From an uncultured archaeon (GTDB taxonomy: Archaea > Asgardarchaeota > Lokiarchaeia > Sigyniarchaeales > SOKP01), in the NCBI GenBank assembly GCA_964525635.1, contig CAZGJX010000099.1:3100-15092 (forward strand): 11,993 bases of DNA. The letters run 5' to 3'. Both the position numbers and the translations under genes were made by a program. The notes under the pieces are model-generated. The model was not told the origin of the DNA. It worked only from the letters and a program-made list of their open reading frames with translations, and did no database searches. This document shows, piece after piece, positions 3 to 11,961 of this stretch. Numbering within the stretch: the stretch's first letter is position 1; each line of letters begins with the position of its first letter.

Positions 3-930
3 TCGGATAATGTTGATATTGATAGTATCTGGTATAATTGGAATGGTACGAATATGACTTATACCTCGGCACAATATATTACATTTAATGAAGGTTTGAA
101 CACTATATACACATGGGCTAATGATTCTGCAGGAAATATAGGAACATCTTCAGTTACCTTTACAATTGATATCAATACTCCAATAGTACAAATTAAGAGT
201 CCCATGAACACCACATATAATATTGCAACGCAGCTTCTAAATATTTCAGTATCTGATAACAATGAAATTGATTCCATCTGGTACAATTGGGATGGTTCGA
301 ATATAACTTACACTTCGGCACAATATATTACATTTAATGAAGGTTTGAACACTATATATACATGGGCTAATGATTCAGTGGGAAATATAGGAATGTCTTC
401 AGTTACCTTTACAATAGATACAATTACTCCAATAGTACAAATTGAATGTCCCATGAATACCACTTATAATATAGCTACACAATTATTAAACATTACAGTG
501 TCGGATAATGTTGATATTGATAGTATCTGGTATAATTGGAATGGTACGAATATAACTTATACTTCGGCACAATACATAACATTTAATGAAGGTTTGAACA
601 CTATATATACATGGGCTAATGATTCTGCGGGGAATATAGGAATGTCTTCAGTTACCTTTACAATTGATACAATTATTCCAATAGTACAAATTGAGAGTCC
701 TATTAATATAACTTATCCTTATTATGAAACCACGCAGCTTCTAAATATTTCAGTGTCTGATAATAATGAAATTGATTCCATTTGGTACAATTGGAATGGT
801 ACGAATATAACTTATACTTCGGCACAATATATAACATTTAATGAAGGTTTGAACACTATATATACATGGGCAAATGATTCTGCGGGGAATATAGGAATGT
901 CTTCAGTTACCTTTACAATCGATATAATAA
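3..930 (+). repeat. Coding tandem repeat, ~249-bp (83-aa) Ig-like units, ~4 copies, first partial
   Basis: Equivalent Ser codons at 3, 252, 501 and 756 (periods 249, 249, 255) with near-identical DNA between units. Confidence 0.9.
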
Positions 931-2870
931 ATCCCAATTACACATTTATTTCTATATGGGATACTACCATAACTAGTTCAGGTTCTAGCCTCATTAATCA
1001 AATTAGATTACCATTGGAATCAAATGGTAATTATAATTTCACAATTAATTGGGGAGATGGAAATTATAACACAATTACAAGTTGGAACCAACCAGAAGTA
1101 ATTCATACATATACTTCAGAAAATATTTACACTATTAGAATAGATGGTGTATTGATTGGGTGGAGATTTAATAATGGGGGAGACAGATTAAAGTTGCTTG
1201 AAATTCAACAATGGGGTAGCTTTAAATTAGGAAATTCAGGAAGTTATTTTTGGGGATGTTCGAATTTAAATCTTACTGCTTCTGATACTTTGGATCTAAC
1301 CGGAACTACTTCACTTTATGAAGCTTTTAGAGTTTGCAGTAATCTTGGTAGTAATGGAAATATGAGTAGTTGGGACGTTTCCAGCGTTACTGATATGTCC
1401 TATATGTTCTATAGTGCTTCTGCTTTTAACCAAGATATAGATAATTGGGATACCTCAAGCGTTACTGATATGTCCTATATGTTCTATGGTGCTTCTGCTT
1501 TTAACCAAGATATAGGTAATTGGGATACTTCAAGTGTTACAACTATGTATGCTATGTTCTCTTCTGCCACTTCATTTAACCAAGATATTGGCAGTTGGGA
1601 TGTTTCCAGCGTTATAAACATGGGTAGTATGTTCAATTATGCTCCTTCCTTCAATCAAGATATAGGTAATTGGAGTGTTTCCAGCGTTACAACAATGGTT
1701 AGTATGTTACGTTACGCTTCTTCCTTCAATCAAAATATTGGCAGTTGGGACGTTTCCAGCGTTACTGATATGTCCTATATGTTCGAACAGGCTTCTTCCT
1801 TCAATCAAGATATAGGTAATTGGAGTGTTTCCAGCGTTACAAACATGGATAGTATGTTATGTTACGCTTCTTCCTTCAATCAAGATATAGGCAACTGGTC
1901 TACCTCAAGTGTTATAAGTATGAGATATATGCTCTCTTATGCCACTTTATTCAACCAAAATATAGGTAGTTGGGACGTTTCCAGTGTCACAAACATGGAA
2001 AGTATGTTCCATTCGGCTACTTCATTCAACCAAGATATAGGCAGTTGGAATGTTTCCAACGTTATAAATATGGGATATATGTTTTATGCTGCTACTTCGT
2101 TTAACCAAGATATTGGCAGTTGGGATGTTTCCAGCGTTATATACATGGGTGGTATGTTCTATCAAGCAACTTCTTTCAATCAAAGCATTGGCAATTGGGA
2201 CGTTTCCAGCGTTACAGGCATGGCTAGTATGTTTAATTTTGCTACTTCCTTCAACCAAGATATTGGCAGTTGGGACGTTTCCAGCGCTACAAACATGGAT
2301 AGTATGTTCTATTATGCCACTTCATTCAATCAAGATATAGGTAATTGGAGTGTTTCCAGCGTTACAACCATGGGTAGTATGTTTTCTTATGCCACTTTAT
2401 TCAACCAAGATATAGGCAATTGGGACGTTTCCAGCGTTACTAATATGTATGCTATGTTCTCTAGGGCTACTTCATTTAACCAAGATATCGGCAATTGGGA
2501 TGTTTCCAGCGTTACAGACATGGCTTATATGTTCCAACAGGCTTATTCTTTCAACCAAGATATAGGTAATTGGAGTGTTTCTAGCGTTACAACCATGGGT
2601 TGCATGTTCCGTGATGCTTCTTCCTTCGACCAAGATATTGGCAGTTGGAATGTTTCCAGCGTTACAACCATGATAGTTATGTTTGATGGGATTTCATTAT
2701 CAACACCAAATTATGAGAGTCTGTTAATAGGATGGTCGAATCTTCCTCTGCAAACTGGTGTGATCTTTCATGGAGGAAATTCAAGATATAGCTCAGCTGA
2801 AGCTGAAGCTGCAAGAGATTTTATCATAAATAATTTTAGTTGGACAATTTATGATGGTGGAAAAGTATAA
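3..2870 (+). CDS. Large repetitive surface protein (Ig-like repeats + PKD-like domain + BspA/DUF285 leucine-rich-type repeats), 5'-partial
   Basis: The frame is open from base 3 (SDNVDIDSIWYNWNGTN...), so the ATG at 54 is internal and the true start lies upstream of the window. Contains 83-aa repeats (..WANDSAGNIG..), a PKD-like segment (FTINWGDG..HTY), 25-aa WDVSSVTxMxxMFxxAxSFNQDIGx repeats and the typical W-x-I-x-DGG C-cap. Many N-x-S/T sequons; no C-terminal TM anchor. Confidence 0.9.
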   Translation, partial: SDNVDIDSIWYNWNGTNMTYTSAQYITFNEGLNTIYTWANDSAGNIGTSSVTFTIDINTPIVQIKSPMNTTYNIATQLLNISVSDNNEIDSIWYNWDGSNITYTSAQYITFNEGLNTIYTWANDSVGNIGMSSVTFTIDTITPIVQIECPMNTTYNIATQLLNITVSDNVDIDSIWYNWNGTNITYTSAQYITFNEGLNTIYTWANDSAGNIGMSSVTFTIDTIIPIVQIESPINITYPYYETTQLLNISVSDNNEIDSIWYNWNGTNITYTSAQYITFNEGLNTIYTWANDSAGNIGMSSVTFTIDIINPNYTFISIWDTTITSSGSSLINQIRLPLESNGNYNFTINWGDGNYNTITSWNQPEVIHTYTSENIYTIRIDGVLIGWRFNNGGDRLKLLEIQQWGSFKLGNSGSYFWGCSNLNLTASDTLDLTGTTSLYEAFRVCSNLGSNGNMSSWDVSSVTDMSYMFYSASAFNQDIDNWDTSSVTDMSYMFYGASAFNQDIGNWDTSSVTTMYAMFSSATSFNQDIGSWDVSSVINMGSMFNYAPSFNQDIGNWSVSSVTTMVSMLRYASSFNQNIGSWDVSSVTDMSYMFEQASSFNQDIGNWSVSSVTNMDSMLCYASSFNQDIGNWSTSSVISMRYMLSYATLFNQNIGSWDVSSVTNMESMFHSATSFNQDIGSWNVSNVINMGYMFYAATSFNQDIGSWDVSSVIYMGGMFYQATSFNQSIGNWDVSSVTGMASMFNFATSFNQDIGSWDVSSATNMDSMFYYATSFNQDIGNWSVSSVTTMGSMFSYATLFNQDIGNWDVSSVTNMYAMFSRATSFNQDIGNWDVSSVTDMAYMFQQAYSFNQDIGNWSVSSVTTMGCMFRDASSFDQDIGSWNVSSVTTMIVMFDGISLSTPNYESLLIGWSNLPLQTGVIFHGGNSRYSSAEAEAARDFIINNFSWTIYDGGKV
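1371..2690 (+). repeat. Coding tandem repeat, 75-bp (25-aa) DUF285/BspA-type units, 17 complete + 1 partial
   Basis: A Trp codon recurs every 75 bp from 1371 to 2646 with no indels. Confidence 0.95.
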
Positions 2871-3944: not shown

Positions 3945-4463
3945 TTAATCTCTATGCTGTTCTTTACTTGTTATAAAATTATATAGATGATGTGAATATA
4001 ACACAAAACCTAACATTGAATGGACATAATCTCGAGCAGCATCAACATCATTTTTATCATATTCCTTTTTTGACATTGCATTTTGAAACCGCTCATTCAA
4101 CTCCTTTTCAGCAGTTTTTTTAATAAAATCTACAACATCTTTTGGATTTTCAATCTCAATCGCTTTATCTGCTTTAGGAACCACTGGACCCCAATCTAAT
4201 CCAGCAGGTTTTAAACCAGTAAATCCTTTTCCTTCCCCTTTTCTATGTAAACGAACAACGGTTTCAAGAAAATAAAGATCTGCTATATGTTTTACTTCTT
4301 CTCCTTTTCCTCTTACTTTTATAGTTTTATTAAATGCTTTTGTTACTTCGTCTTCAGCATCTTTAGGAACCCAAGGAAGAATCAATTTTATATTCTTAGA
4401 TTCTAATGCTAATCTAGCAGCACTGACCACAGGTCCATCTAAAGTATCACAATGTGGAGGTAT
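3945..4463 (-). CDS. DUF6448-like protein (PPHCDTLDGPVV N-terminus), cytoplasmic form
   Basis: Recognised motifs HCDTLDGPVV, FLETVVRLHRKGEG..FTGLKPAG and AARDYVHSMLGFVLYSHHLY. Start is uncertain: GTG at 4472 or ATA at 4463. Confidence 0.8.
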   Translation of the reverse strand: MPPHCDTLDGPVVSAARLALESKNIKLILPWVPKDAEDEVTKAFNKTIKVRGKGEEVKHIADLYFLETVVRLHRKGEGKGFTGLKPAGLDWGPVVPKADKAIEIENPKDVVDFIKKTAEKELNERFQNAMSKKEYDKNDVDAARDYVHSMLGFVLYSHHLYNFITSKEQHRD

Positions 4464-4649
4464 AAATTTCACCTTTATTATTTCTATTAATTTTTATTTT
4501 TTGTTTTAATATGATAATGTATTTTTATCACTAATAATTAGTTTTGGTTTTATAGACTATAGACAGTGAATTTATATATATAGAGGATAACTTATAAAAT
4601 AATGATTAGTATGAATAATTAGATTTTAAATAGGGAAATGATTTAAAAA

Positions 4650-5234
4650 ATGCTACCTATAGGTCCACTTATGGTTGAACATCGGTTAATTGAACGTATG
4701 ATTAACATTCTTCGAATTGAACTTAAAAAGATTCAAGAAAAAAATGAAGTAAATCCAATTTTCATAGATAATATAGTAGATTTTATAAAAATTTATGCAG
4801 ATCAAACACATCATGGCAAAGAAGAAGATATTTTATTTCGAGAATTGAAAAAAAAGGATTTAAAGCCTAGCCACAGGAAAATAATGGAAGAACTCATTGA
4901 GGAGCATGTGTTTGGAAGAAAAATTACTGGTGAATTAGTAGAAGCAAAAGAAAAATATACTCAAGGCAAAAAAAATTTATTAACCATTATTATTGAAAAG
5001 ATAAATATTTTAGTAGATTTTTATCCCAAGCATATTGAGAAAGAAGACAAGCATTTTTTTATCCCTGTAATGATATATTTTTCTAAAAAAGAACAAGATC
5101 AAATGTTATTAGAAGGACAAACATTTGACAGAAAGATGATTCATAGAAAATATAATACCTTAGTCATTGAATATGAAAATGAACGAGAACTTTCTAGAGA
5201 TAAACAAGATTCCGATTGGATTAATTATATTTAA
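4650..5234 (+). CDS. Hemerythrin-like HHE cation-binding domain protein
   Basis: Motifs EH(RLI), HHGKEE, EEH and HIEKED in a helical-bundle pattern. Confidence 0.85.
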   Translation: MLPIGPLMVEHRLIERMINILRIELKKIQEKNEVNPIFIDNIVDFIKIYADQTHHGKEEDILFRELKKKDLKPSHRKIMEELIEEHVFGRKITGELVEAKEKYTQGKKNLLTIIIEKINILVDFYPKHIEKEDKHFFIPVMIYFSKKEQDQMLLEGQTFDRKMIHRKYNTLVIEYENERELSRDKQDSDWINYI

Positions 5235-5436: not shown

Positions 5437-6360
5437 ATGACATATGTAGAGATTATTGTTCCTATATTTCTAGCATTTCGAGAGGGTATTGAAGCAATAC
5501 TAGTTATTATAATTATGTTGCTATATTTAAGAAAAACCAATCAAAAACTTTACTATAGGCATGTATATATTGGAAGTATTTTAGGAATCCTATTTAGTAT
5601 TGTATTTGCCTTCATTTTTAACTCTATTTTAGGAGGATTTACAGGTGTTATGGAAGAATTATTTGAGGGATTTACCTTCATTATATCTGGATTCTTCATC
5701 ATTACTTTAATATTATGGATGAGCAAGGAAGGACCTAAATTGAGGGATAATATCGAACAGAAAATTAAAAAATCTATTCAAAAAGAAAAATCCTTCTCAA
5801 TTATGATATTAACATTTATAATAATTGTTAGAGAAGGAGTGGAATTAGTTCTTATGTTAACAGGAGCTACTTCTGTAGGGACACTCCAATCAATTGATGT
5901 AATATTAGGATCATTATTAGGTATTGGTATAGCATTAGGTACTGGATTGATCCTATTTTATGGCATAAAAACAATAAATTTATCATTATTTTTCCAAATA
6001 ACTAATATTATTCTTGTGTTATTTGCGACAGGATTGATTGTATATGGATTCCATGAATTAATTGAATCAGATTTTATAAATCCTTTAATCGAGGAGGTCT
6101 GGAATTTAAAGGCAATTCTTCCTGAGAATTTTCCTGATGGAAATCCATTAACTCCAGAATGGCTCGAAGTGATTGGATCATTACTAAAAGCATTATTTGG
6201 ATATAATGCCAATCCATCACTGTTAGAGATACTTATTTATCCAATTTTAATTATTATAATAAGTTCAATTTCATTGAAACTATGGAAACGATCAAGTGAA
6301 AATCTCAATGAAAAGAGTATTTATCAATCATCAGGAATGGTAAGATTAGAAACTAAATAA
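5437..6360 (+). CDS. ftr1: FTR1/EfeU-family iron permease
   Basis: Two RExxE motifs (REGIE, REGVE), about 7 hydrophobic helices, G-x-HEL and ..LKALFGY..PS motifs. Confidence 0.9.
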   Translation: MTYVEIIVPIFLAFREGIEAILVIIIMLLYLRKTNQKLYYRHVYIGSILGILFSIVFAFIFNSILGGFTGVMEELFEGFTFIISGFFIITLILWMSKEGPKLRDNIEQKIKKSIQKEKSFSIMILTFIIIVREGVELVLMLTGATSVGTLQSIDVILGSLLGIGIALGTGLILFYGIKTINLSLFFQITNIILVLFATGLIVYGFHELIESDFINPLIEEVWNLKAILPENFPDGNPLTPEWLEVIGSLLKALFGYNANPSLLEILIYPILIIIISSISLKLWKRSSENLNEKSIYQSSGMVRLETK

Positions 6361-6543: not shown

Positions 6544-6563
6544 TATATATTAAATGGTATATG
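6544..6563. promoter_or_regulatory. Degenerate copy of the putative copper operator (TATATAT-taaatg-GTATATG)
   Basis: Same 7-6-7 geometry as the sites at 7508 and 9801, 12/14 arm positions matching; upstream of the regulator gene. Confidence 0.4.
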
Positions 6564-6676: not shown

Positions 6677-7117
6677 ATGAATGAAAATGAAGATATTAAG
6701 ATTAGAAATTTAACTAAACTATATACATTAGTTTTATTGAAAGCAAATAAAGTGATTTCAGGATATTCAATTTTAAAACGTTTAGACAAAGATCTAGGAA
6801 AAACAAGTAGTCCTACTTATATTTATGATTTTTTAAATGATCTCGAAGCTAAAAGTTATATTGAGAATGTAAAATCATTAAAATCTAACAAATCAAAAGG
6901 TTACTCACTTACCACTTTAGGAAATGATTTTGTAGAAAAAATACTGACGAGATTTGATAATTTAATTGAAGTTGGAATTCAATCAAAACTAAAAATTTGT
7001 GCTAGCTGTGGAGTAAAATTATATATGGATTTTCATACAGAAGAAATAAAAGGAGAGAAAATGAATTTTTGTTGTAAACATTGTGCTAAAGCCTATAAAA
7101 ATATTCAAAAGCCATAA
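6677..7117 (+). CDS. PadR-like winged-helix transcriptional regulator with C-terminal TRASH/YHS-type Cys domain
   Basis: N-terminal LLK..SGYSILKRL....SPTYIYDFLNDLE..SYI....KGYSLT..G is a PadR-type wHTH pattern. C-terminal CASC-x20-CCKHC. ATG at 6677 preferred over TTG at 6674. Confidence 0.8.
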   Translation: MNENEDIKIRNLTKLYTLVLLKANKVISGYSILKRLDKDLGKTSSPTYIYDFLNDLEAKSYIENVKSLKSNKSKGYSLTTLGNDFVEKILTRFDNLIEVGIQSKLKICASCGVKLYMDFHTEEIKGEKMNFCCKHCAKAYKNIQKP

Positions 7118-7174: not shown

Positions 7175-7468
7175 TCATTCTTTTTCATTTAATTTATCTT
7201 GATAATAGACTTCTCTATAATTCCCTCTCACTAAGAGATAAACTAATAAACCAATAATATTAAATATCAATACAATAATTAACCAAATTTCAGAATTATG
7301 AATTCGTAATCTAAGTGCATCTTTATGGACATAATATGCCATTACGATACTAATACCAATATAGATAAAAAATCCAAATAACATAAAAATCCACCAAAAT
7401 GGTCCAAAGATATTAAACATCCAATCCATCATATGATCATGATCATAATCAAGAATTATAATTATCAT
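7175..7468 (-). CDS. Small membrane protein, PLDc_N-like hairpin with N-terminal His/Met motif
   Basis: HDHMMDWM followed by hydrophobic helices and a DA..R....W..IVLIFNIIGLLVYLLVR pattern typical of PLDc_N-like proteins. Confidence 0.7.
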   Translation of the reverse strand: MIIIILDYDHDHMMDWMFNIFGPFWWIFMLFGFFIYIGISIVMAYYVHKDALRLRIHNSEIWLIIVLIFNIIGLLVYLLVRGNYREVYYQDKLNEKE

Positions 7469-7506: not shown

Positions 7507-7541
7507 ATATATACATTAATGTATATATTTAAAGGTATGTA
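7507..7541. promoter_or_regulatory. Perfect 22-bp palindrome ATATATACATTAATGTATATAT (7507-7528) plus an overlapping degenerate copy (7522-7541), putative copper operator
   Basis: Lies in the divergent promoter between the small membrane gene and copB and overlaps a minus-strand TTTAAATA box (7533-7526). Confidence 0.7.
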
Positions 7542-7689: not shown

Positions 7690-9750
7690 ATGGAAAATAT
7701 ACATTATAAAAAACATGAAATGGGAAATAAAGAAGATATAGAACATGATTTAGTAGATCATAAAGATCACTCTAAAAAATCGATGCATAATGATCACAAT
7801 GATCATAAAAATCATCATAAAATGATGTTAAATGATTTTAAAAGAAGATTTTTTGTTTCATTGGTTATAACATTTCCAATATTGGTTTTATCACCTTTAA
7901 TTCAATCTTTTTTTAAATATAATTTAGAATTTCCCGGTTCAATCTACATAATTTTTATTCTCTCCTCATTTGTATATATTTATGGAGGATTTCCTTTTAT
8001 TAAAGGGATGATCAAGGAATTTAAAGATAAAATACCTGGAATGATGACTTTAATTGCAATTGCTATATCTGTTGCTTATCTCTATAGTTCTATTGTAGTA
8101 TTTGGATTAGAGGGAGAAGTTTTTTTTTGGGAATTGGCAACATTGATTGATATTATGTTAGTAGGACATTGGATTGAAATGCGTTCAGTATTAGGGGCAT
8201 CAAGAGCACTTGAAGAATTAGTAAAAATTATGCCATCAGAAGCCCATTTAGTAAATAATAATGAAATACAAGATGTAAAAGTAGAAGAATTAACGGTTGG
8301 AGATAATGTTTTAGTAAAACCAGGTGAAAAAATCCCTATAGATGGTATTATCATTCAGGGTGATACAAATGTTAATCAAGCTCTGATCACAGGAGAATCT
8401 AAACCTGTTTCTAAAAAGATTCATGATGAAATTATAGGAGGTGCTATTAATGGAGAAGGGTCGATAGTTATAGAAGTAAAGAAAACAGGTAAAGATACAT
8501 ACTTAAACCAAGTTGTTGAATTAGTTAAAAATGCTCAACAAGCAAAATCGAAAACTCAAGATTTAGCAAATAAAGCAGCATTAATTTTAACCATTGTTGC
8601 TATCTCTGTTGGATTTTTAACATTTACTCTTTGGATTTTATCTAACCAAAATCTAACATTTGCTATAGAGCGAACTGCAACTGTTATGGTAATTACATGT
8701 CCACATGCTTTGGGTTTAGCAGTTCCTTTAGTAGTTGCTCGTTCAACAACATACGCAGCCACATCAGGATTATTAATAAGGGATAGAACTGCATTTGAAA
8801 CTGCCAGAAATATAGAGGCAATTGTATTTGATAAAACAGGAACACTTACTCAAGGTAATTTCGGAGTGATTGATATCATATCTTTTAATGGTATTGATGA
8901 AAATGATATTTTAAGCATTACAGCTTCTCTTGAAAATAAATCAGAACATCCTATCGCACTTGGTATAGTCAATAGTGCTAAAGCAAGAAAAGTTCAATTT
9001 GAATCTGTAGAAGAATTTAAAGCAATCCCAGGAAAAGGAATTAAAGGAAAAATTGGAGAAACCGATTATAAAGTTGTAAGTCCTGGATATTTAAGAGAGA
9101 TGGATAGATCTTTTAATAATAAAGTTATTGAAGAGAAAAAACAACAAGGTAAAACTATTGTTTTTTTATTAAAGAATGATAATCCTATTGGAGCACTAGC
9201 ATTAGCAGATATTATAAGGGAGGAATCAAAAGAAGCTATTAAGAGATTAAAATCATTAGGAATTAAATGTATTATGCTAACAGGAGATAATCAATTTGTT
9301 GCAAAATGGGTTGCAGATGAATTATTACTTGATGATTTTATTGCAGAAGTCTTACCCCACGAAAAAGCAGATAAGATAAAAAAAATTCAAGAAAAATATA
9401 AAACTGCAATGGTTGGCGATGGAATCAATGACGCACCTGCTTTGGCTCAAGCAGATGTTGGAATTGCAATCGGAGCTGGAACTGATGTTGCTATTGAAAC
9501 AGCTGATATTGTACTTGTTAGAAATGATCCACGTGATGTAGCTGATATATTACACCTTTCGAAAAATACCTATTCAAAAATGTTTCAAAATTTAATATGG
9601 GCTACAGGGTATAACGCATTTGCAATACCACTTGCTGCTGGAGTTCTCTTTAGTTTAGGAATCTTACTTTCCCCTGCTATTGGTGCAATACTAATGAGCT
9701 TAAGTACTGTTATTGTAGCGATTAACGCAAGATTATTAAAGAAATCTTAA
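7690..9750 (+). CDS. copB: Copper-translocating P1B-3 type ATPase
   Basis: His-rich N-terminus (10 His in the first 43 aa), TGES, CPH, DKTGT, SEHP, TGDN, GDGINDAP, GYN and MSLST motifs; complete. Confidence 0.95.
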   Translation: MENIHYKKHEMGNKEDIEHDLVDHKDHSKKSMHNDHNDHKNHHKMMLNDFKRRFFVSLVITFPILVLSPLIQSFFKYNLEFPGSIYIIFILSSFVYIYGGFPFIKGMIKEFKDKIPGMMTLIAIAISVAYLYSSIVVFGLEGEVFFWELATLIDIMLVGHWIEMRSVLGASRALEELVKIMPSEAHLVNNNEIQDVKVEELTVGDNVLVKPGEKIPIDGIIIQGDTNVNQALITGESKPVSKKIHDEIIGGAINGEGSIVIEVKKTGKDTYLNQVVELVKNAQQAKSKTQDLANKAALILTIVAISVGFLTFTLWILSNQNLTFAIERTATVMVITCPHALGLAVPLVVARSTTYAATSGLLIRDRTAFETARNIEAIVFDKTGTLTQGNFGVIDIISFNGIDENDILSITASLENKSEHPIALGIVNSAKARKVQFESVEEFKAIPGKGIKGKIGETDYKVVSPGYLREMDRSFNNKVIEEKKQQGKTIVFLLKNDNPIGALALADIIREESKEAIKRLKSLGIKCIMLTGDNQFVAKWVADELLLDDFIAEVLPHEKADKIKKIQEKYKTAMVGDGINDAPALAQADVGIAIGAGTDVAIETADIVLVRNDPRDVADILHLSKNTYSKMFQNLIWATGYNAFAIPLAAGVLFSLGILLSPAIGAILMSLSTVIVAINARLLKKS

Positions 9751-9799: not shown

Positions 9800-9821
9800 A
9801 TATATACTTAAATGTATATAC
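9800..9821. promoter_or_regulatory. Putative copper operator TATATAC-ttaaat-GTATATA (9801-9820)
   Basis: Perfect arms, identical to the 7508-7527 site; downstream of a TTTATAAT box (~9780) and upstream of the TRASH-copA operon. Confidence 0.7.
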
Positions 9822-9873: not shown

Positions 9874-10086
9874 ATGAACGAGAAAAATTGTCCGATTTGT
9901 GGAAAAAGTATAAAATCAGATGCAGATATACATTTATTTTGCTCATTATGTGGAATGGGTATCCCAAATGAACTATCTCATCTGGTATATAAAAATATAA
10001 AGGGAAAATTATTGCATTTTTGTTGTAATCATTGTTTATCTATTTATAAAGAAGAGATAGATAAAAATATAACAATTAAAGATTGA
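9874..10086 (+). CDS. Small Cys-rich TRASH-domain protein, putative copper chaperone
   Basis: CPIC-x13-CSLCGM...HFCCNHC; lies immediately upstream of copA. Confidence 0.75.
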   Translation: MNEKNCPICGKSIKSDADIHLFCSLCGMGIPNELSHLVYKNIKGKLLHFCCNHCLSIYKEEIDKNITIKD

Positions 10087-10110: not shown

Positions 10111-11961
10111 ATGAATGAGGTAATAGAAGAAAAAAGGAAATCTACTTTAAAAATTCAAGGAATGCATTGTGCTTCATGTGCTCAAAAAATCTCAAAGGAA
10201 CTAAATAAATTTGAAGGAATTAATAATGTTAATGTAAATATTGCGACTAATAAAGCATATTTTACATATAATCCACTTAGAGTTGATAAAAAGGATATCG
10301 TCGATGCTATAGAAAGGATTGGGTATGGAGCAACCCCAAATACTGATAAAATAATCATTAAAATTGGAGGTATGACTTGTGCATCTTGCGCACAAACCGT
10401 AGAAAAGGCTCTTAAGAATAGTTCAGGAATTATCAGTGCGAATGTCAATATTACTACAGAAAAAGCAACAATTGTATATGATACAGAATTTATGAATTAT
10501 GAGAGTATTGCTGATATAATTAATAAAACAGGATATAAAGCACTCAACAAAGTTGAATCATCATCTGGTAGGGTTTCATATGATAAAGAAATTGAAGAAG
10601 AAGAGCAAATATATAACTTGGCTAAGAAACGGTTAAAGATTGTATGGGCATTTAATATCCCTATAATTATTTGGATGTTATTTGAAATGATTGGAGGGAT
10701 AATTTGGCCTAATGAACTTATTTATAATTTAGGAATAATTGTATTAGCCATTTTTCCTCTACTCTGGGCAGGATATGAGACATATTTTACTGCATTCAAA
10801 GCAGTAAGGCACGGAAGTGTAAATATGGATGTTCTTATTGCTTTAGGAACGCTCTCAGCCTTTATAACAGGACCTTTATCATTTATTATTCCTGTTTTTA
10901 ATTATGCGGGTGTTGGAGCAATGATAATGGCATTTCATCTCACAGGAAGATATATTGAGACAAAAGCAAAAGGAAGGGCTTCTCAAGCAATCCGAAAACT
11001 TTTGGAATTAGGTGCTAAAACTGCGACTATTATTATTGATGGGAAAGAAAAAGAAATACCTATTGAAGATCTACAAATAAATGATATCATGCTAATCCGT
11101 CCAGGAGCTAAAATTCCAACAGATGGAATTATAATTGAAGGAAAAAGCTATATAGATGAATCAATGGCTTCAGGTGAATCATTACCAGTAAAAAAGAATA
11201 TTGGTGATGAAGTAATTGGTGCAACGATTAACCAAAAAGGTTTATTGAAAGTAAAGGCTACAAAGATTGGTGAAGATACCTTTTTAGCTCAAGTGATTCA
11301 TTTAGTTGAGGAATGTCAAGGTTCTAAAGTTCCAATACAAAAATTTGCTGATAAAATTACTAGTTATTTTGTTCCAACAGTATTGGTGATATCGCTCATT
11401 GGATTGATATTATGGATGTTTATTCCCCAAACTATGATTGACTTAATTTCACCTATTGCACCATTTATTCCATGGGTGAATTTAAATACAGGGCTCATTA
11501 CATTAGCGATTTCAGCATTTATCTCGACATTAGTAATCGCATGTCCTTGCGCCCTTGGGTTAGCAACCCCAACAGCATTAATGGTTGGAAGCGGTTTAGG
11601 AGCTGAAAATGGTATACTAATTAGACGGGGTGAAGCAATTCAAACACTTCGAAACATAGACGTAATAATATTTGATAAAACTGGAACTATTACTAAAGGA
11701 TCTCCTGAAATAACTAATATTCATGCTATTAACGGATTTACTGAAGAGGAAATTGTTCAATATGCTGGAAGTGTTGAAAAAGGTTCAGAACATCCACTTG
11801 CAGATGCAATTGTTAGAAAATCAAAAGAATTAAATCTTGAACTTTATGATATAACTAATTTTAAAACAATTACTGGAAAAGGAGTAAAAGCTAATATAGT
11901 TAATAAATATGGAACTATATTGGTTGGAAGCAAAAAACTCTTAGTGTCCTATAATTATTAA
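10111..11961 (+). pseudogene. copA: CopA P1B-1 Cu(I) ATPase, truncated within the nucleotide-binding domain
   Basis: Two HMA domains (GMHCASC, GMTCASC), SGES, CPC, DKTGT and SEHPL are present. It stops after VGSKKLL and lacks TGDN, GDGxND and the last two TM helices. SD-like AAGGTG upstream. Confidence 0.8.

Follow-up and report, generated by a model that had tools for sequence, protein, structure and literature searches.

A PadR-type winged helix joined to a TRASH-like cysteine domain in the cop locus of an Asgard archaeon: a candidate copper-responsive repressor

Background

Which protein regulates a cluster of copper-ATPase genes in an uncultured Asgard archaeon, and does it belong to the type of copper regulator already described in Archaea? 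To our knowledge, archaeal copper sensing is known experimentally only from the Lrp/AsnC-TRASH regulators of a few thermophiles and halophiles, and we are not aware that PadR proteins are counted among the accepted metal-sensor families. A first, sequence-only reading of the window considered here (the whole stretch of 11,993 nucleotides that was analysed) had nevertheless pointed to a gene in which a PadR-type wHTH seemed to be fused to a TRASH cysteine cluster, and had set this fusion apart from the CopR regulators, in which TRASH would be joined to an Lrp/AsnC-like core. CopR of Pyrococcus furiosus (PF0739) is indeed described in this way, as a TRASH-tailed protein of the Lrp/AsnC family which forms an octamer and wraps about 150 bp of DNA, archaeal CopR acting as both repressor and activator (PMC7830388).

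Results and discussion

Domain architecture of the regulator

The open reading frame of the regulator starts with an ATG at 6677 and ends with a stop codon at 7115-7117 (Table 1). Its translation carries the cysteine cluster C108-x2-C111-x20-C132-C133-x-H135-C136, in which CASC and CCKHC are separated by exactly 20 residues, the spacing that had been read from the sequence; the coordinates, motif and domain order given for the fusion are likewise all correct by ORF and Pfam analysis. On this protein, the PadR family (PF03551) matches residues 20-86 with 26.8 bits, just below the curated cut-off of 27, the Ta0938 family (PF11494) matches residues 108-143 with 27.4 bits against a cut-off of 27, and TRASH_HVO_1752_C (PF24273) obtains 21.8 bits, below its cut-off of 27. 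We aligned 38 PadR-TRASH members, and this alignment is the source of both the family profile and the invariant columns (C108, C111, G112, F131, C132, C133, H135 and C136). Pfam recognised PadR in all 38 members (best E 3e-20), PF24273 in 37 (best 5e-8) and PF11494 in 36; the other matches to the tail were Arc_trans_TRASH (PF08394) and zf-FCS in seven members each, L24e in two, YHS in one and ATPase-cat_bd in a few.

Table 1. Coordinates of genes, protein domains and candidate operator dyads in the window
Feature	Position	Strand	Remarks
Very large repeat protein	3-2870	+	3' part; 5' end open
DUF6448	3945-4472	-	
Hemerythrin-domain protein	4650-5234	+	
FTR1 iron permease	5437-6360	+	
Degenerate dyad	6544..6563	.	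2 mismatches; upstream of regulator, then TTTAAA; candidate autoregulatory site
PadR-TRASH regulator gene	6677..7117	+	146 aa plus stop codon
PadR subfamily-2 module	6677..6991	+	Residues 1-105; AF2, PDB profile, Foldseek, VIA
TRASH-like Cys domain	6992..7114	+	Residues 106-146; Pfam, 2fqh, eL24/ZMYM5 fold, invariant columns
97-aa membrane microprotein	7175..7468	-	N-terminal DHDHMMDW; predicted regulon member
Perfect dyad	7508..7527	.	Divergent small-membrane-gene/copB promoter region
Overlapping degenerate dyad	7522..7541	.	2 mismatches; offset 14 bp from perfect copy
CopB-type (P1B-3) ATPase	7690..9750	+	CPH337, N-x5-GYN-x4-P, MSLST, without HMA domain
Perfect dyad	9801..9820	.	54 nt upstream of TRASH microprotein-copA pair
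70-aa zinc-ribbon plus TRASH microprotein	9874..10086	+	CSLC-x23-CCNHC; candidate copper chaperone
CopA-type (P1B-1) ATPase	10111..11961	+	Two GMxCxxC HMA domains, CPC478

The AF2 model of the regulator (pLDDT 88.8) consists of helices at residues 3-23, 29-40 and 46-58, a wing formed by strands 62-66 and 74-78, and one long helix at residues 80-102, which connects the winged helix to the Cys domain and corresponds to the single C-terminal helix proposed earlier. When the family profile was compared with all PDB chain sequences, nearly all of the 60 matches listed were PadR proteins, beginning with TA0346 (3elk, E 2.3e-10) and Bacillus subtilis PadR (5x11, E 7.5e-10) and followed by AphA, LmrR, Rv3488 and RosR; a few MarR-type entries stood towards the end of these 60 matches and no Lrp/AsnC entry was among them, nor was any Lrp/AsnC family found in the Pfam matches of the 38 members. 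Foldseek, which had been suggested as a means to tell PadR from Lrp, ranked short structures of PadR subfamily 2 (PadR-s2) first (9qbc, 1xma, 5h20, LmrR and Rv3488), and VIA-align gave Rv3488 as its best match (5zhc, Z 13.0, 99 residues aligned, rmsd 2.5), ahead of six more PadR-s2 structures that include 7wjp (Z 12.4) and 1xma (Z 12.2). With PadR on top in the PDB profile, in Foldseek and in VIA, the N-terminus of the regulator is, by sequence profile and by fold, a member of PadR subfamily 2 and not of Lrp/AsnC, as the sequence-only reading had supposed.

Two other cores were considered and rejected. An Lrp/AsnC core is ruled out by the PDB profile, Foldseek, Pfam and VIA, and there is no space for an Lrp-type RAM domain because PadR takes up residues 1-105 and the Cys domain residues 106-146. 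A MarR core comes close in VIA (Z about 11.8-10), but the sequence profile prefers PadR by several orders of magnitude.

The cysteine-rich tail

The TRASH consensus is C-x2-C-x19-22-C-x3-C, and the tail of the regulator, C108-x2-C111-x20-C132-x3-C136, conforms to it with a motif that is invariant in the 38 sequences. Using a profile of the tail only, we obtained from the PDB Ta0938 (2fqh, E 8.9e-4), in an alignment that spans residues 15-55 of the 109-residue chain, and then weak eL24 matches; the Pfam match to the Ta0938 family is also partial, only positions 4-37 of the 92 of the PF11494 profile being aligned. The tail was also modelled alone (47 residues, pLDDT 88.3), and Foldseek matched this model with the N-terminal domains of eL24/Rlp24 and with the TRASH domain of ZMYM5 (2das), at TMq 0.54-0.72, prob 0.90-0.99 and E 0.2-0.8. 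The VIA matches had Z scores of 5.3-4.0 and included the copper chaperone NosL at Z 4.4. These fold scores are low, though the matches are uniform, because the domain has only 47 residues. Taken together, motif, Pfam and PDB profile fit a TRASH-like tail, with low-scoring fold matches.

Distribution of the family

Homologues in uncultured archaea had been predicted, and a word-indexed search returned 217 matches at 57-68% identity, nearly all of 142-156 aa, which are named Promethearchaeota/Lokiarchaeota, Thor-, Heimdall-, Hod-, Hermod- and Odinarchaeota (mostly Asgard names) and of which the existing annotation mentions just PadR, HTH or 'TA0938 family'. In 201 genomes sampled over the phylum, 69 encode a PadR-TRASH protein, nearly always in single copy; a census of domain architectures, also proposed beforehand, identifies the fusion as a conserved family, in which PadR is present in every one of the 38 aligned members. 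An exhaustive search of 50%-identity representatives gave 132 clusters at E up to 0.001, and more distant PadR-TRASH members are found under Njordarchaeia and Bathyarchaeia/Nitrososphaerota names. One close homologue (P0075; 61% identity, 76 member sequences) bears the NCBI name of a Candidatus Nanopelagicaceae bacterium MAG and probably comes from a mis-binned Asgard contig.

In the searchable literature, which omits most subscription journals, no paper joins 'TRASH domain' with PadR, and nothing relevant was found there on winged-helix TRASH proteins, on copper control by PadR in Asgard archaea, on Ta0938 or on HVO_1752. The scaffold of PadR-TRASH differs from that of the known copper regulators, and we are not aware of any experimental description of a sensor built in this way; its components and its logic (a TRASH domain plus an HTH beside copA) are already known.

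Copper gene neighbourhood

The genes of the window follow each other in the order DUF6448, hemerythrin, FTR1, regulator, 97-aa membrane protein, copB, 70-aa TRASH protein and copA (Table 1). The neighbours of the regulator thus include ATPases of the CopB and CopA types and, between them, the 70-aa TRASH microprotein, and the cop cluster setting that had been noticed from the sequence holds. The N-terminus of the CopB-type ATPase is rich in histidine (10 His in the first 60 residues), and its CPH, N-x5-GYN-x4-P and MSLST motifs are those that we take to be the P1B-3/CopB signatures. The copA frame ends at 11961, 32 nt short of the contig end and about 90 residues past DKTGT, and the copA orthologues are much longer (889 aa in locus L048); the short copA reflects an artefact of the contig end or else a truncation of the gene.

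A neighbourhood analysis had been recommended along with the census. We fetched about 16 kb around each of 20 orthologues of the regulator and located the relatives of the window proteins by tblastn: in 16 of these 20 loci a CopA/CopB-like P1B ATPase is encoded within about 1 kb of the regulator, often divergently, and the four exceptions are two loci without ATPase within 8 kb, one with the ATPase 6 kb off and one with the membrane protein only. At the distant loci, the partner ATPases have YHS/TRASH ends and YHS/TRASH microproteins are found beside them.

The 97-aa membrane microprotein, for which two to three helices and a weak PLDc_N match were found, has relatives (56-64% identity) that adjoin the regulator or cop genes in 7/20 loci, and it may be a copper-handling component. 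The 70-aa microprotein has an N-terminal CPIC zinc-ribbon knuckle, recurs in loci L035 and L050, and is a paralogue of the regulator tail, with which it has 35% identity (E 9e-7) and the pattern CxxCG...FCCxHC..YK in common. These two proteins carry the only PF24273-like domains of the whole genome. In this 100%-complete genome, neither Arc_trans_TRASH (PF08394) nor CsoR (PF02583) gave any match, with positive controls matched, in a search for copper regulators that covered these two families.

The copper module is immediately preceded by the DUF6448, hemerythrin and FTR1 genes; locus L040 has a relative of DUF6448 (75% identity) beside copA, and L051 has an FTR1 relative near the cop genes, a placement that may indicate an iron-copper linkage. 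Further upstream, the incomplete protein at the beginning of the window is made of ~90-aa repeats followed by many ~22-aa units of the type S-F-N-Q-D-I-G-x-W-D-V-S-S-V-T-x-M, and looks like a surface protein.

The nature of the metal at the cysteine site has to be considered in the light of these neighbours. Since Ta0938, the best solved relative of the tail, is a zinc-binding protein, the cysteine site of the regulator could be structural, that is, a zinc knuckle for folding or dimerisation, in a protein that would sense thiol oxidation or another stress or would act constitutively, so that its place among cop genes would speak for regulation but for no direct sensing of metal; zinc is largely structural in the eL24 and MYM zinc-finger fold family, and the haloarchaeal PadR relative RosR, which is among the matches of the family profile, responds to oxidative stress. 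Four cysteines suffice for zinc, however, and the tail has five that are invariant. Of the 73 motif-bearing clusters of the wider family, 72 retain the CC doublet; the last Cys is preceded by His in just 46 of 72 clusters and by Y, S or N in the others. The paralogy of the tail with a stand-alone microprotein at the usual position of a copper chaperone and the tight synteny with copper ATPases also speak against a merely structural zinc, as does the fact that TRASH is the part of CopR implicated in copper sensing (PMC7830388). We consider the structural explanation unlikely and retain copper as the probable signal.

Candidate operator

The candidate operator is a 20-bp dyad with 7-6-7 layout, TATATAC-N6-GTATATA. 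Two perfect copies are found in the window, one of them 40 nt from the ATG of the small membrane gene and 163 nt from that of copB, the other upstream of the microprotein gene, and two further copies are degenerate (Table 1). The 14-bp phasing of the overlapping pair is also seen in loci L035, L051 and L052, and the TTTAAA after the degenerate copy upstream of the regulator resembles the layout of orthologous regulator promoters. These four dyads at up to 2 mismatches compare with 0.34 expected in the window, and none of 200 shuffles reached four; at the same threshold, the upstream regions of ftr1, DUF6448 and the hemerythrin gene contain no dyad. In the 4.45-Mb genome the exact dyad has exactly two copies, both at the cop locus, and the control pattern has none. 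The genome has 4 one-mismatch dyads, a number to be regarded as noise because the control pattern reaches 10, and the regulon thus appears to be confined to the cop locus.

In 9-10 of 11 close orthologous loci the same dyad is present, with the regulator on one side and copA or the small membrane gene on the other, and it precedes the regulator start by 81-118 nt in a fixed layout of dyad, TTTAAA, N8-9 and TATTATAAAATA. A more distant clade, of 42-47% G+C, has a variant dyad, ATATATC-N6-GATATAT, at equivalent places. The region of the recognition helix (residues 45-53) reads SPTYVYDFL in the close clade and SAGTLYPFL or SPSLVYPFL in the distant one, and, as far as this comparison of sequences goes, the change of half-site from TATAC to ATATC may co-vary with the recognition helix between the clades. 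The variant dyads also form arrays with 14-bp phasing and common half-sites (L051:7900-7947 and 14348-14795; L052:7281-7369); those of L051 are placed upstream of a pair of genes for YHS microproteins (minus strand; 13998-14183 and 14476-14655), after which comes an FTR1 gene. Such arrays suggest a wider regulon and cooperative binding in the distant clade.

With arms that are TATATA-like in a genome of 29% G+C, part of the dyad signal could be due to bidirectional promoter elements. Carried further, this would make the dyads nothing else than the paired TATA boxes of AT-rich bidirectional promoters, with the regulator binding elsewhere or controlling other genes, and one-mismatch copies at the level of the control pattern would agree with it. 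The exact copies, by contrast, are confined to the cop locus in 4.45 Mb, orthologous loci preserve the 6-bp spacer as well as the C/G positions, and the clade of 42-47% G+C has a different dyad with the same geometry at its cop and YHS promoters. We therefore hold this explanation to be very improbable and continue to treat the dyads as candidate operators of the regulator.

Proposed mechanism

We consider it probable that the regulator is a copper-responsive dimeric repressor which occupies the dyads of the cop promoters until Cu(I) at its TRASH tail releases it. Copper sensing by PadR-TRASH is what we infer from the genome comparisons, and it is backed by the conserved synteny and by the locus-specific candidate operator. 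According to this proposal, a PadR-TRASH dimer would bind TATATAC-N6-GTATATA at three promoters, where this dyad would overlap the TATA/BRE elements or lie against them: those of the small membrane gene/copB, of the TRASH microprotein/copA and, with the weaker dyad, of the regulator itself. Without copper, the regulator would hold the dyads and block the recruitment of TBP/TFB or RNA polymerase; since the arms of the dyad resemble TATA boxes, at 40-54 nt from where translation of the small gene and of the microprotein starts, its occupancy should exclude TBP/TFB. Cu(I), possibly delivered by the paralogous 70-aa TRASH microprotein, would bind the cluster that immediately follows the dimerisation helix (C108/C111/C132/C133/H135/C136) and thereby shift the two winged helices, and with this changed geometry the regulator would leave the DNA and the efflux genes would be expressed. 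In an attractive and entirely speculative version, Cu(I) supplied by the paralogous microprotein would displace Zn as it does in CopY.

The position of the dyads also bears on the sign of the regulation. TTTAAA directly follows the dyad in the promoters of copB and of the regulator, a position of the dyad compatible with activation, and the regulator could be a copper-dependent activator or a dual regulator that stays on the dyad while Cu(I) stimulates the recruitment of TBP/TFB, as CopR has been reported as repressor and activator alike (PMC7830388). The distances to the ATG of the small membrane gene and of the microprotein gene (40 and 54 nt) are short, however, and the dyad therefore probably overlaps the core promoters of both genes. 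The PadR-family proteins characterised so far are, moreover, mostly repressors released by their ligand. An activating role seems to us improbable, and repression relieved by Cu(I) remains the reading that we prefer.

Comparison with known systems

The regulator resembles CopR/CopT of P. furiosus, T. onnurineus and Saccharolobus in its C-terminal TRASH domain as presumed copper sensor, in its gene placed beside copA and often divergent from it, in the TRASH-type chaperone genes of the locus and in the predicted control of efflux. It differs from them by its core, a PadR-s2 module of ~105 residues without RAM that is predicted to bind as a dimer to a 20-bp dyad, and by its Cys motif, which has an extra invariant Cys (the CC doublet) and usually a His.

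With the PadR-s2 proteins LmrR, Rv3488, Cth-833 and TA0346 it shares the fold over residues 1-105, the single C-terminal helix and profile homology. The known members, however, bind drugs or phenolics at the interface of the dimer and are not known to carry an additional metal domain, whereas in PadR-TRASH the TRASH domain directly follows the helix and the gene sits in copper loci. Among solved structures, Ta0938 of T. acidophilum (2FQH, PF11494) comes closest to the tail in sequence and has CxxCG...FCCxxC in common with it, but is a stand-alone protein without DNA-binding domain and without the His. CopY of Enterococcus hirae, the winged-helix protein that represses the cop operon, has a Cys cluster at its C-terminus, where chaperone-delivered Cu(I) replaces Zn(II) and releases the DNA; the likeness to it is a functional analogy only, as CopY is bacterial and has a BlaI/MecI-type winged helix and a CxCx4CxC motif.

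Conclusions

A more far-reaching view, which we offer tentatively and think somewhat less probable than its opposite, is that PadR-TRASH forms a metalloregulator family of its own, on which Asgard archaea and some Bathyarchaeia would mainly rely to sense copper. The arms of its operator would double as TATA boxes, for which the repressor would compete with TBP, a structural Zn would be swapped for a Cu(I) cluster supplied by the microprotein, and half-site and recognition helix would have co-evolved (TATAC versus ATATC).

At the strength of the repressor proposal itself, the locus offers a testable second solution to archaeal copper sensing, with a 146-aa protein, a 20-bp candidate operator, a predicted regulon of three promoters at one locus and a candidate chaperone, and with hundreds of orthologues in the archaea most closely related to eukaryotes. 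It would show that the TRASH module has been attached to DNA-binding scaffolds of unrelated origin. The regulator is small and its candidate operator simple, which could make it useful as a compact copper-responsive switch, and the candidate operator allows the cop regulon to be predicted in uncultured Asgard genomes.
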